Of a DNA stretch of 64,000 bases, positions 24,643 to 30,745 are shown in pieces; positions within the stretch are counted from its first letter, which is position 1; every line of letters begins with the position of its first letter. The position numbers were made by a program, and so were the translations under genes. The DNA is from Dictyostelium discoideum. Lineage: Eukaryota. Under the pieces are notes generated by a model. That model did not search any database. It had not been told where the DNA came from and saw only the letters and a list, made by a program, of their open reading frames with translations. The DNA is taken from positions 6,048,001-6,112,000 of the forward strand of contig CM000152.2 in assembly GCA_000004695.1 (NCBI GenBank), read 5' to 3'.

Positions 24643-24655
24643 TTTTGAAAAAAAG
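24643..24655. repeat. Target-site duplication (left copy) of the TRE5-A insertion: TTTTGAAAAAAAG.
   Basis: Identical 13-mer at 30733-30745, immediately outside the other element end. Confidence 0.7.
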
Positions 24656-25102
24656 TTTTTTTTTTTTTTTTTTTTTTTTTTGAATTGGATAACGCAATTA
24701 TTATTTGCTTCTCCTTGAGATGCTAGATCTCATTTTATTTTATTTTTTTTTTTTTTTTACAGGGTCTCTAAAAGAGGGGTTAGTTTACTTTTTTTTTTTT
24801 TTTTTTTTTGTTTCGAATTTTGAATTGTATTATTACTTTTGATTAAAACATCTTTTTTGTCCAAACTTTTTTCTAAATCTTTTTTTATTTTATCGTCTGG
24901 TTCGTGATTGATGTTTATGACGTATTTGAATTGTTTTTTTTTTAATTGAGTTTTATCCACAATTTCGCTTATTTTTTGTAGGCATTTGTGTTGCTTAATA
25001 TTTGTGGTGTTGTTTGTGATTTTCATTTTATTTTCTTTCTATTTTTTATATTTTTCTTTAAAAAGTTAAAAATCTGGAAATTTTCTGATTATCTTGGGTT
25101 CA

Positions 25103-25163
<61 letters not shown>

Positions 25164-28100
25164 TTATTTATAGAAAGTACTGAGTGAATTATTGTATTTT
25201 TTGAGATGTTTAGGAAGTTCTATTGCGTGAAGAGGTGAGTTCCATTGTCTGCTAAATTGTAATAGCTTTAGCGAGATTAGTGAGTCTAATTTATTTTGTT
25301 CTTCTGGCCGTTGCTTTGATTTGATTCTTAATGTTTTGTTTATAACCGCTTGTGTCCTGTCCCATGCAGCTCTTTGTGTTTTAATTAGTTCACGTATGAC
25401 TTGTTGTCTGTGAATTATTATTTCTTTTTCATCGTGAATGAGTTTATTTCTTTTGTGCCAGATTTTATCGAATATAATAGCTATTAAATTGGCTACTAGT
25501 GCAATTTGTAGATGGTTTAAAATCTTCACATTCCAGGTGTGAGTGGTGTGTCCACACTTAGTTAGGGTGTAGTTGAAGATTTCTTGTGTGTTTTTGATGT
25601 GGGCTTTGCAGTTGAAGAATATATGTTCTGAGGTCTCATCTTCCCCACACTGTTGGCATGGCATGTTGTATATTTTTGGTAGTGCTTTCAGTGTGTATCT
25701 CCATAATAGATCTCTACCTTTCATGTTTATTATTTTTTTGATTTCTTTAAATGGAAGGTGTTTGCTATTAATTTTGGTCATTATTTCTTTTTGGCCAGGA
25801 GTTGGTATGAATTTGTTGTGTTCAGGAGATTGAGTTGTCATCATATCTTCGTATATTTTTTTTAATTTTGGGAGGTGTTCGTAGTGTGTTTGTTTATTTT
25901 GTGGAGTTTTTAATTGGGTCCATGCTTGCTTGCATTGCCAGTGTAGTTGTAGTTGATTTTGTTTTGTTGTTGTTTTGTTGTTGTTGTTGTTTTTGAGTTC
26001 CTCTTCCCACAGTTTTATATATGAACTAGGAGTGTTACTTACTCTTTGGTGGAGGTATCTTTCGAATAACCATGCTTTCTGTGCTAGTTCTCTTGTCTTC
26101 AGGTTCCATAAGTTTAGGCCACCATTGATATAGTTGTTTTGTCTTCTTTGTAGTGAAAGAGAGTTTTTAGATTTTGTGTTGAAAACGAATTTTACGATGT
26201 TATTTTCAATACTATTGTGTTGTGGTGTGGTGTTGATGTAAGTGTGGAACGTTAACTGAGATAGTGCATATGTTTTTGCCATTATGAGTCTGCCCATATA
26301 GGTTGATGAAGTTGAGTTCCATGTTACTAGTTTAGCTCTGATGTTGTCTGAGATTGTATTGATTTTGGATTTGATACCCTTATTGTTGAAGTCAAAGCCG
26401 AGGTACCTTTCGTTTGATTTTATGACGGTGTATAGCGTTCTGGTGTTCCATTTGAAAGTGATACACGAGCATTTGGTTTGGTTTATTTTTGCGCTGGTTG
26501 CTTGGCAAAACTTCTTGATCCATTCATTCATGAGGAAATGGTCCATAAAGTTGTATGCTATTGTTGCTGTATCATCGGCGAACTGTAGTATTTTAATGGT
26601 TTCTTTGGTTACACCATTGATGCAGCGGTCATTTATTATAGTAGTTGCCATGCATTCACCCACTAATGCGAAGATAGTGGGAGAGATAGGATCACCTTGT
26701 TTGGTTCCTCTTTTTGATGTAAAGCTTTTAGATAATGAGTTATTGATGTACACTGATGTTTCTGATTCATTGAGTAAGTTCATTATTGTGAGGACCATTT
26801 TGAGTGGTAGTTTTAGATGTGCAAGAGTACGTAGAATGGCGTTATGTGAGAATAAATCGAATGCTTTTTCAAAATCATAAAATGTTATGATTGGTTCCAT
26901 ATCCTCTTTTGTGTTAATCTCTCGTTTTATTATTTCTATTGTTGAGTTTAAGGTGATGATGTTATCGTGCAGTAGTCTTCTTGGTACGAATCCAGTTTGG
27001 AATGGTGAGATTATTTTGTTTAAGAACTTCAGGATCCTATTGTTGATTATTTTCGAATAGATTTTGTAATCGACATTTAGAAGTGTTATTGGTCTATAAT
27101 TATCCAGGTTGTTTGGGTCTCCTTTGTTTTTATATATAGTAATCAATATCCCTTGTTTGAAGTCCTTTGGGATTGTTGTGTTCCAGAAGTGATTGTATAG
27201 TTTTGATATTATTGGTAGAATTTCATTAATGTGGTTTTTGTAAAATGTTGGAAGGAGTCCATCTTTACCAGGTGCTTTTCCTTCTTGTATTTTTTCAATG
27301 CCTAGTCTGATTTCATATCCTTCTATTGGTTGATTAATTTCGTCCAATATCTTTTGATCAATCCTTTTATTGAATGTTTTTAGGAGTTCGTGGTGAGTGT
27401 CTTCGTTGCATTCTCTCTTCTGGTACAGGTTCTCGTAATATCTTCTTGCTACTTCGAGGATATCCTCGTGTTTTGTTACCAAACAATTGTTGCTTGGATC
27501 TAGAATTTGAGGGATTTCATTTGTCTTTCTTTGGACTTTTAACCTTCTGGTTAAGTATTTTGATGGTGTTTCTTTGTTGTTGATGTGGGTGTTGGTTTGG
27601 TTTGCTTGTTTTATTCTTACTTGTTCCTTTAGAATATTGTTGATCTCTTCTTTAAGGAAGATTGCTCTTGAATCTTTGGCTGTTTCGAGTTTTTCTGCGA
27701 GTTCTTTTAGTTTGTTTTTGGTTTTATTGCTTTCTCTAATTTCTATATTAATTGACAGTTTCTTTATTTCATCTTTTAGTTTCAACCATTGTTCGCAAAT
27801 GTTTAATTTGTACCATTTGCTGGTGTTCTCTTCGAATTTTTTATTGTAGTATTTAATTGTTTTATTAATTTTGAGGCTGGTTGAATTCATTTTGAGAGTT
27901 TCTAGGTTTTGTCTCCATAGTCTTTCTCCTTTCTTTTGTTGCTCGTATTCTGGTATTTTTAATTCAATGATTACCATGTTGTGATCAGATTTTAATTTGA
28001 TTTCCTTAGTAGTAACTATTGGGTTTAGATGGAGTATCTTCTTTGAGACAAAGACCCTATCGATGGTTGATTTGTTTCTTGGAAATGTGATTCCATTCTT

Positions 28101-28385
28101 AATTTCTGTAAATTCGAATTCGTCGAAGATTGTTTTAATATATTTGTTAAGGTTATTATCCACTGAACAGTCTACATTGAAGTCTCCAGTTATAATATCG
28201 CTGTGTAGTATTTCTTCTGTGAGATTTTCCTTATACCATTCATGTCTTTCGTTTGACTTTGCTGGGGCATAAATGGTTGTGCATTTGATCTGTGTTTTTG
28301 CAATCATCCATTCGGAAGATATAATTCTTTCGTTTATTGTTTTTGTTGTTGTTTTTATTTGGGTGTTGATGATGATTTGTGACAC
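25164..28385 (-). CDS. TRE5-A ORF2: apurinic-endonuclease-like domain, reverse transcriptase and C-terminal CCHC zinc knuckle (1073 aa, intact).
   Basis: N-terminal ..HSDIITGDFNVD.. (EEP/APE-like). RT motifs ..ITFYDFEKAFDLFSHNAILRTL.., ..SKRGTKQGDPISPTIFAL.., ..ILQFADDTATIAY... C-terminal CQQCGEDETSEHIFFNCKAH. Confidence 0.85.
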   Translation of the reverse strand: MSQIIINTQIKTTTKTINERIISSEWMIAKTQIKCTTIYAPAKSNERHEWYKENLTEEILHSDIITGDFNVDCSVDNNLNKYIKTIFDEFEFTEIKNGITFPRNKSTIDRVFVSKKILHLNPIVTTKEIKLKSDHNMVIIELKIPEYEQQKKGERLWRQNLETLKMNSTSLKINKTIKYYNKKFEENTSKWYKLNICEQWLKLKDEIKKLSINIEIRESNKTKNKLKELAEKLETAKDSRAIFLKEEINNILKEQVRIKQANQTNTHINNKETPSKYLTRRLKVQRKTNEIPQILDPSNNCLVTKHEDILEVARRYYENLYQKRECNEDTHHELLKTFNKRIDQKILDEINQPIEGYEIRLGIEKIQEGKAPGKDGLLPTFYKNHINEILPIISKLYNHFWNTTIPKDFKQGILITIYKNKGDPNNLDNYRPITLLNVDYKIYSKIINNRILKFLNKIISPFQTGFVPRRLLHDNIITLNSTIEIIKREINTKEDMEPIITFYDFEKAFDLFSHNAILRTLAHLKLPLKMVLTIMNLLNESETSVYINNSLSKSFTSKRGTKQGDPISPTIFALVGECMATTIINDRCINGVTKETIKILQFADDTATIAYNFMDHFLMNEWIKKFCQATSAKINQTKCSCITFKWNTRTLYTVIKSNERYLGFDFNNKGIKSKINTISDNIRAKLVTWNSTSSTYMGRLIMAKTYALSQLTFHTYINTTPQHNSIENNIVKFVFNTKSKNSLSLQRRQNNYINGGLNLWNLKTRELAQKAWLFERYLHQRVSNTPSSYIKLWEEELKNNNNNKTTTKQNQLQLHWQCKQAWTQLKTPQNKQTHYEHLPKLKKIYEDMMTTQSPEHNKFIPTPGQKEIMTKINSKHLPFKEIKKIINMKGRDLLWRYTLKALPKIYNMPCQQCGEDETSEHIFFNCKAHIKNTQEIFNYTLTKCGHTTHTWNVKILNHLQIALVANLIAIIFDKIWHKRNKLIHDEKEIIIHRQQVIRELIKTQRAAWDRTQAVINKTLRIKSKQRPEEQNKLDSLISLKLLQFSRQWNSPLHAIELPKHLKKYNNSLSTFYK

Positions 28386-29932: not shown

Positions 29933-30007
29933 TTTATTTTCTTTCTATTTTTTATATTTTTCTTTAAAAAGTTAAAAATCTGGAAATTTTCTGATTAACT
30001 TGGTTCC

Positions 30008-30058
<51 letters not shown>

Positions 30059-30062
<4 letters not shown>

Positions 30063-30732
30063 TCTTTTTTATATGAAAAATGAAATAATCAAAAAAAGAG
30101 ATTGTTGTTGTTGTTTGTTTTTTTTCGATCTGATTATTTTTTGCTTTTTTTTGAAAATTTTGCTACGCAAAATTCTCAAAACGAAACAAATAATAAATTC
30201 CAATAAAGTAAAAGATGGGCTTTTTAGATTAGTTTATTTTATTAATTTATTTGTTTTTTAAAGTCTTTTTTTATATGAAAAATTGAAATAATCAAAAAAA
30301 AGAGATTGTTGTTGTTGTTTGTTTTTTTCGATCTGATTATTTTTGCTTTTTTTTGAAAATTTTGCTACGCAAAATTCTCAAAACGAAACAAATAATAAAT
30401 TACAATAAAGTAAAAAGATGGCTTTTTAAGATAGTTTATTTATTTATTTATTTGTTTTTTAAGTCTTTTTTATATGAAAAATGAAATAATCAAAAAAAGA
30501 GATTGTTGTTGTTGTTTGTTTTTTTTCGATCTGATTATTTTTTGCTTTTTTTTGAAAATTTTGCTACGCAAAATTCTCAAAACGAAACAAATAATAAATT
30601 ACAATAAAGTAAAAAGATGGCTTTTTAAGATAGTTTATTTATTTATTTATTTGTTTTTTAAGTCTTTTTTATATGAAAAATGAAATAATCAAAAAAAGAG
30701 ATTGTTGTTGTTGTTTGTTTTTTTTCGATCTG
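30059..30732 (-). repeat. TRE5-A A-module tandem array (about 200-bp unit, 3.4 copies; the promoter-bearing 5' UTR module).
   Basis: The unit aagtcttttttatatgaaaaatgaaataatcaaaaaaagagattgttgttgttgtttgtttttttcgatctgattattttttgcttttttttgaaaattttgctacgcaaaattctcaaaacgaaacaaataataaatt.. repeats starting at about 30059, 30250, 30459 and 30659. The last copy is truncated at the element end. Confidence 0.7.
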
Positions 30733-30745
30733 TTTTGAAAAAAAG
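30733..30745. repeat. Target-site duplication (right copy): TTTTGAAAAAAAG.
   Basis: See the left copy at 24643-24655. Confidence 0.7.

Follow-up and report, generated by a model that had tools for sequence, protein, structure and literature searches.

TRE5-A is the best-studied retrotransposon that targets tRNA genes, and TRE5-A.1, formerly named DRE, is an autonomous, tRNA-gene-targeted retrotransposon of the type without long terminal repeats (non-LTR). Here we examine a member of this family in a 64-kb window of the Dictyostelium discoideum genome (64,000 nucleotides of contig CM000152.2; A+T content 77%), which an initial annotation, made from the letters alone, had described as a young and possibly active copy beside a tRNA-Val gene. 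Published TRE5-A elements have the layout AB-ORF1/ORF2-BC, with an A-module of ~200 bp, a B-module of ~290 bp and a C-module of 134-137 bp (PMC3159450; PMC5633606), and their two open reading frames (ORFs) overlap (PMC5633606). In published profiling, 80% of new integrations and 59% of the copies in the reference genome fell into the zone 47 ± 3 bp in front of a tRNA gene, in a constant orientation and with target-site duplications of 10-16 bp (PMC5391098; PMC9012585). We identify the window element with high confidence as a full-length D. discoideum TRE5-A.1, inserted by target-primed reverse transcription at the site upstream of a tRNA gene that the family prefers. Its anatomy, identity, position, domain content and presence/absence polymorphism were each established by direct observation.

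The closest described system is TRE5-A.1 itself, which the window copy resembles in layout, module sizes, overlapping ORFs and the order of APE endonuclease, reverse transcriptase (RT) and zinc knuckle. There is no categorical difference between the two; the window copy has 3.4 A units against a minimal 1.4, and a few substitutions of uncertain reality. The non-autonomous TRE5-A.2 shares its ends, ORF1 and targeting with the window copy but is without most of ORF2 and has a 72-bp B/C deletion (PMC3159450), neither of which is seen in the window element. TRE5-A-like elements at loci L013, L014 and L017, the last from D. citrinum, have the same architecture and a conserved C-module 3' end, with a distance to the tRNA gene of 46-50 bp in L013 and L014. 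They differ in that their DNA is 84-89% identical and the D. citrinum ORF2 protein 57-59% identical. Human LINE-1 and Bombyx SART1, both APE-type non-LTR elements with a bicistronic RNA, share the hallmarks of target-primed reverse transcription (an A-tail and a variable duplication) with TRE5-A, but their ORF1 is unrelated to that of TRE5-A, which finds its targets via RNA polymerase III factors and not through a loose sequence preference.

The element spans 6077 bp on the minus strand (24656-30732), and on its own strand the order is 3.4 A units, an A-run, a B-module, ORF1, ORF2, an A-run, a second B-module, a C-module and a tail of 26 A (Table 1). The module map, the B-module repeat and the tandem array found by TRF thus bear out the initial annotation, which had listed all TRE5-A modules. 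The A array consists of three full units of 198-203 bp and one partial unit of 72 bp, with unit starts (AGATCGAAAAAAA) at 30731, 30532, 30334 and 30131. At its 5' end the element reads CAGATCG..., which is the canonical AGATCG start preceded by a single nucleotide for which the internal repeats provide a template. The B-modules (287-288 bp) form a direct repeat with 97-99% identity (for the 3' B-module and 29725-30024, 97% ungapped and 98.8% by BLAST); they are internal duplicated segments of the transcript and not LTRs. The second of the two holds a silent duplicate of the ORF1 start. An A-rich 3' tail, a flanking duplication and the absence of LTR-type terminal repeats are the hallmarks of an APE-type non-LTR element, and all are present here. 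When the remaining window sequence was searched with the element by BLAST, the only matches were A/T runs, and there was no second copy.

Table 1. Positions of the element, its modules, ORFs and domains, and of the flanking tRNA genes, in the 64-kb window
Feature	Position	Strand	Remarks
Target-site duplication, 3'-side (left) copy, TTTTGAAAAAAAG	24643-24655	.	read directly; also present in L002
Oligo(A) tail, 26 uninterrupted A	24656-24681	-	aligns with tails of other copies
C-module, 137 bp	24682-24818	-	
3' B-module, second copy	24819-25106	-	holds silent duplicate of ORF1 start
Internal A-run, 55 nt	25107-25161	-	between ORF2 stop and 3' B-module
ORF2 open frame, 1152 codons + stop	25164-28622	-	stop at 25164-25166
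Zinc knuckle of ORF2, CX2CX7HX4C	25608-25658	-	aa 989-1005, C-terminal
RT domain of ORF2	26394-27119	-	RVT_1, E = 2e-30, with FADD
APE endonuclease domain of ORF2	about 27978-28571	-	
ORF1, 444 aa	28598-29932	-	ATG at 29932, inside 5' B-module
5' B-module	29725-30011	-	contains ORF1 ATG
A-run, 48 nt	30012-30059	-	between A array and 5' B-module; TRF
Tandem A-modules (promoter module)	30060-30732	-	3.4-3.5 units of ~199 bp
Target-site duplication, 5'-side (right) copy, TTTTGAAAAAAAG	30733-30745	.	
tRNA-Val(AAC), target gene	30780-30853	+	ARAGORN; Rfam RF00005, 57.9 bits
tRNA-Ile(AAT)	24152-24224		431 bp from TRE5-A tail

For comparison we used nine loci with full-length copies (L001-L009), fetched from assembly GCA_054883475.1 by exact match to P0039, one of the AX4 ORF2 models that we label P0039, P0040 and P0042. 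The uniformity of ORF2 among these loci follows from the way in which they were chosen, and only L002, which is the same locus as ours, offers an unbiased comparison. The window element is 99.0-99.3% identical in DNA to the nine full-length copies; its alignment with L002 covers 1-6077, and those with L003-L005 cover almost the full length (99.1-99.3%). Its ORF2 is 99.4-99.7% identical, ungapped, to the AX4 models DDB_G0269056/DDB_G0292796, DDB_G0270860 and DDB_G0273345/DDB_G0281941. The coding core, which begins with the ORF1 ATG and ends with the ORF2 stop, measures 4769 bp and shows no indel against ten other full-length copies, L006 being the exception, so that comparison with TRE5-A.1 copies, as the initial annotation had proposed, gave a full-length match and none of the internal deletions that it named as grounds for doubt. 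Exact-sequence look-ups of the window ORF1, the 1047-aa ORF2 and P0042 returned no record.

The C-module at the 3' end of the element is intact. Its unique sequence is the same as in L001, L002 and L003, and the one difference, from L001 and L003, is in how long an internal A-run is; the internal A-run at 25107-25161 differs by 11 nt in length from the same locus in L002. A hairpin region at the 3' end of the C-module is reported to be essential for retrotransposition, and the published C length is 137 bp (PMC3159450). The last 54 nt of the window C-module fold at -11.3 kcal/mol (z = -3.1) and the hairpin region is the same in other copies, so that the hairpin needed for retrotransposition is present here as a predicted fold.

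Two further features of the fetched copies concern their A arrays and their arrangement. The number of A units varies, with ~19 in L004 (404-4280), ~10 in L003 (2192-4280) and L005 (2199-4280), 3.4 in both the window and L002, and 1.4 in the shortest array (L006); all arrays start in the same phase (AGATCG). Head-to-tail tandem copies of TRE5-A.1 are found in L007 (3786-14511), L008 (3606-14506) and L009 (1-9621). In these the 3' B-module of one copy is the 5' B-module of the next, and the next ORF1 begins 121 nt after the ORF2 stop, the A array, C-module and tail all being absent from the junction. This arrangement suggests B-module recombination or template switching.

We confirmed that the element is bounded by a perfect 13-bp duplication, TTTTGAAAAAAAG, and that its 5' end lies 47 bp (30733-30779) from the first nucleotide of tRNA-Val, divergent and head to head with it; the tRNA gene was identified by both ARAGORN and Rfam, its A box beginning near +8 and its B box being GGTTCGATTCC. 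The 13-mer occurs twice in the 64-kb window, against 0.28 expected from shuffles or 0.05 from base composition, and the probability that the 13 nt abutting the two element ends agree by chance is ~3-5e-7. The match is not part of a longer pre-existing duplication, for it stops at 13 nt (ata/ctg on the left, ttttt/ggttg on the right). A distance of 47 bp with a 13-bp duplication is the modal case and lies inside the published ranges, and the canonical TRE5-A geometry that the initial annotation had recognized therefore stands with respect to distance (47 ± 3 bp), fixed orientation and duplication length (10-16 bp). Eight other copies among the fetched loci lie 39-54 bp from a tRNA gene in a like orientation.

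A scenario in which the 13-mer repeat arose by chance or predates the element, and in which recombination rather than simple insertion brought the element in, seems to us highly improbable. In its favour, the target site is A/T-rich with low sequence complexity, element-free alleles differ by a ~320-bp indel beside the site, and the tandem arrays joined through B-modules in L007-L009 show that recombination happens in the TRE5-A family. However, the two 13-mers directly adjoin the ends of a complete element (P ~5e-7) and there is no further copy in the 64 kb, the match ends at 13 nt, within the published 10-16 bp (PMC9012585), and other copies are bounded at the corresponding junctions by separate duplications of 15-18 bp.

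For an insertion by target-primed reverse transcription, we take the mechanism from published TRE5-A work, and we infer its targeting and reverse transcription steps rather than read them from the sequence. The pre-integration complex would dock through the ORF1 protein on TFIIIB/TFIIIC bound at tRNA-Val, and the ORF2 endonuclease would then nick the DNA about 47-60 bp upstream of this gene. From the nick the A-tailed RNA would be reverse-transcribed, and a staggered cut of the second strand 13 bp away would give rise to the duplication. The whole transcript was copied, from the start of the first A-module to the tail, with nothing deleted and both frames open. An A-tail, a duplication and a complete 5' end are what the published model predicts.

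Gene models of ORF1 are 444 aa long at the nine fetched loci except L006 (464 aa, owing to an insertion), in agreement with the intact 444-aa ORF1 first reported for the window. ORF1 gave no family match in Pfam, as published (PMC5391098). ORF2 is read in the -1 frame with respect to ORF1, and the two overlap by 25 nt. The ORF2 frame is open from 28622, and no ATG occurs in it before codon 106 (28307), the start used in the 1047-aa AX4 models. The initial annotation had reported an intact ORF2 of 1073 aa with APE, RT and CCHC domains; the frame and the three domains were upheld, and its length and start were not, because the 1073 residues are counted from a GTG at 28385 that is an artefact of bacterial start rules, in an open frame of 1152 codons.

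The choice of start codon bears directly on the endonuclease. In an alignment that took in related and more distant non-LTR proteins, all the catalytic residues of the endonuclease are kept: N19 (in WNVQG), E48 (LTET), the Tyr of IYAP, GDFN, the Asp of IDR, and SDH. A profile of this alignment matches the human L1 ORF2p endonuclease over its whole length (1e-47); a phmmer search of the Protein Data Bank (PDB) with the ORF2 N-terminus alone found no endonuclease, whereas the family profile did match. N19 and E48, together with the N-terminal third of the domain, are encoded upstream of both the GTG at 28385 and the ATG at 28307. The APE domain is thus complete only in the 1152-codon frame, and the 1073-aa ORF is without the catalytic N19 and E48. 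We also considered whether ORF2 is N-terminally truncated or damaged, and this was ruled out since the missing AUG is common to all copies. As no copy compared varies in that region, the lack of an early AUG is not damage; to judge from the aligned copies, it is a trait of the whole family and no defect.

The way in which ORF2 is translated concerns the family as a whole and not the window copy in particular. None of the D. discoideum TRE5-A ORF2 examined has an AUG before the endonuclease domain. At the ORF1/ORF2 junction the window reads cuAUAAag, with the UAA of ORF1 overlapping an AUA in the ORF2 frame, and the junction in L013 is the same (AUAA). The corresponding sequence in L014, from D. 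cf. discoideum, is uuAUGAag, a stop-start overlap with a true AUG (about 6700). ORF2 of the D. citrinum relative (L017, 3880-3925) is in the other frame, with a short overlap and no AUG. Because N19 and E48 precede both the GTG and the ATG, a functional ORF2 protein would have to begin near codons 1-12 of the open frame, a stretch without an AUG. Since the frame relation shifts between lineages and the overlap stays, termination-reinitiation is more parsimonious than a conserved frameshift. ORF2 would then be translated in coupling with ORF1, the likeliest route being reinitiation, after termination at the ORF1 UAA, on the overlapping AUA. We tentatively propose, as a possibility with somewhat less than an even chance, that TRE5-A, an active family, in this way relies on a non-AUG codon for the coupled reinitiation that yields its ORF2 protein. 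A -1 slip on A-AAA would be the less likely route. In SART1, ORF2 translation is coupled to ORF1 through a UAAUG stop-start, and some viral systems are permissive for near-cognate codons (PMC10275272); in TRE5-A, by contrast, the coupling is putative and the overlap codon is AUA, not AUG. A literature search on the translation of TRE5-A ORF2 found nothing specific.

To place the insertion in time, we compared the locus between assemblies. The GH84 gene beside it, spliced from 32613-33766, translates exactly to DDB_G0282371 (AX4). In GCA_054883475.1 the same locus (L002) is 99.6% identical over 15 kb, and the element, the duplication and the number of A units are alike. The protein of the adjacent GH84 (NAGidase) gene led, by homology, to the orthologous locus in four further assemblies. 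Look-ups of the 1131-aa and 174-aa ORFs of the flanks gave a single close assembly, and the only relative that a homology search returned for the low-complexity 1131-aa protein was from D. purpureum. In D. discoideum ACTFIW (L012) and D. cf. discoideum ACTFIY (L015), tRNA-Ile and tRNA-Val are 1.2-1.4 kb apart and no TRE5-A lies between them. D. discoideum ACTFIR (L013) likewise has none upstream of tRNA-Val; its TRE5-A variant, 89% identical, is found at tRNA-Ile, 50 bp upstream of that gene, and has a duplication of its own, AAAATTTTATAAAAGCTT. In D. cf. discoideum ACTFIZ (L014), an element of 84.5% identity lies upstream of tRNA-Val at a distance of 46 bp, and its 15-bp duplication, ATTGTAACGAAGGAC, is not that of the window copy. 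We rejected this element as an orthologous insertion on the grounds that both its duplication and its target sequence differ; it represents an independent event. The tRNA-Ile/tRNA-Val pair has thus been hit independently in three lineages.

Because the window insertion is missing from L012, L013 and L015 and the one in L014 is independent, the insertion is polymorphic and younger than the split from the compared isolates. That it is common to two assemblies of the AX4 lineage and absent from the other isolates supports a recent origin, which also fits the pure A26 tail and the perfect duplication. The presence/absence polymorphism at tRNA-Val that the initial annotation had suggested looking for is therefore real, and its view of the copy as young and perhaps active was borne out as to age: competence was not established, given seven amino acid replacements (see below) and the insufficiency of open frames as evidence.

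The element-free alleles show rearrangements of their own near the target. L012 (9240-9300 and 9368-9420) contains an inverted partial copy of the 5' part of tRNA-Val and its upstream 40 bp, and in L015 (9320-9420) the upstream 25-30 bp of tRNA-Val are directly duplicated. Both may be traces that earlier events left at the target.

Several observations weigh against our identification of a complete and recently inserted copy. First, the Pfam family Exo_endo_phos matches ORF2 aa 18-195 with E = 0.0012 and 19 bits, against a cut-off of 24.5 bits. Second, the element-free alleles carry ~320 bp of extra or rearranged DNA beside the site and no exact empty site was recovered, so that the pre-insertion sequence, expected to be ...ttacatttttttaataTTTTGAAAAAAAGggttgcagc..., is deduced from the duplication alone. 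Third, differences between the window and L002 are ~20 times commoner inside the element than in the flanks: the flanks differ by 1 substitution in 9.1 kb plus run-length changes, and the element (3585-9641 in L002), with the A array left aside, by 13 in 5.4 kb (p = 2.4e-5). As the differences are concentrated inside the element, statements about individual bases of the window copy are not secure. Fourth, seven replacements fall at conserved protein positions, including RT motif A, and leave the activity of the window copy uncertain.

These replacements come from the coding core, in which 7 of the 11 substitutions relative to L002 are non-synonymous. ORF1 carries K184N and S215F, and ORF2 carries N385H, E435G, S590L, I591F and V655G; at all seven positions L002 holds the family-consensus residue. 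The Dictyostelium TRE relatives aligned show no variation at E435, S590, I591 and V655, except that one relative (P0011) has Leu at S590. S590 and I591 belong to RT motif A (KAFDSISH) and adjoin its catalytic Asp, S590 being the second residue after it. H385 and G435 recur in the AX4 model P0042, and none of the window's variants was seen in GCA_054883475.1. L590, F591 and G655 occur in no other retrieved protein and are thus private to the window copy, next to or inside RT motifs.

Two explanations of these differences were weighed. Near-identical flanks imply that real mutations acquired after insertion should be shared, and for this reason one of the two assemblies is probably wrong inside the repeat, through mixed or poor reads or through polishing to the consensus; gene conversion is the other possibility. 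We give an even chance to the specific case in which the element is real and its base-level sequence in the window is in part an assembly artefact of merged copies or low-quality reads, or in which the other assembly was polished to consensus. The contrast in substitution density between element and flank agrees with this, as do the further differences of the second A unit (30200-30340) from L002, which fall at many small positions, and the recurrence of H385 and G435 in P0042. On the other side, such a pattern would also be expected if copies within a single lineage had undergone gene conversion, and either assembly may be the one in error.

Alternatively, the copy might be complete and young and yet functionally impaired, its private missense changes in ORF1 and the RT domain having made it a passenger and not a source, for which other copies supply the ORF2 protein in trans. 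The proportion of non-synonymous differences from L002 (7/11) is as expected without purifying selection, the conserved residues E435, S590 and V655 are affected, L590, F591 and G655 are seen in no other retrieved protein, and the ORF2 protein acts in trans, as published (PMC3159450). Against this, the GCA_054883475.1 locus has the consensus at all seven sites in spite of its near-identical flanks, and the P0011 relative tolerates Leu at the position of S590. We consider an impaired copy rather unlikely.

If L002 is right, the locus would encode consensus proteins; should the window sequence be the correct one, the RT of this copy may be impaired. Retrotransposition requires open frames but is not guaranteed by them, and the competence of the window copy is unproven. 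The identification as a full-length TRE5-A.1 inserted upstream of tRNA-Val is independent of which assembly is right, since both versions keep the structure and the open frames.

A second, unrelated insertion lies just downstream of tRNA-Val. It is a 5'-truncated non-LTR fragment of 1172 bp (30881-32052, plus strand) that ends in an A-run and is flanked by the duplication AGTAACAAATT (30870-30880 and 32053-32063), between tRNA-Val and a B-box-like sequence, GGTTCGACTCT. Its ORF (31210-31926) weakly resembles the zinc-knuckle region of TRE ORF2 (37% over 54 aa). The fragment is absent from all four loci of the other isolates, where the site is uninterrupted, and by its position it is probably of the TRE3 type. 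On the other side of the element, the spacer between tRNA-Ile and the TRE5-A tail contains a perfect 13-nt inverted repeat, ATTTTTGGAGGTG / CACCTCCAAAAAT (24436-24448 and 24527-24539), with its arms 78 nt apart. The surrounding 200 bp are 78% conserved in L012 and L013, and the region of the repeat (24436-24539) had no Rfam family match.

The window element is a known member of a well-studied family at a textbook position, and its gene models are already in a public assembly. What it illustrates for other copies is that ORF2 models starting at the first ATG (1047 aa) or at the GTG (1073 aa) drop two catalytic residues of the endonuclease, and automated annotation will misjudge the ORF2 protein accordingly. 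The sequence of such repeats also varies between assemblies of one lineage, so that calls of 'intact' or 'active' need confirmation at the locus in question. As the ORF2 protein of the whole family comes from full-length TRE5-A.1 copies, a catalogue of candidate sources is of use, and the window locus is one such candidate.

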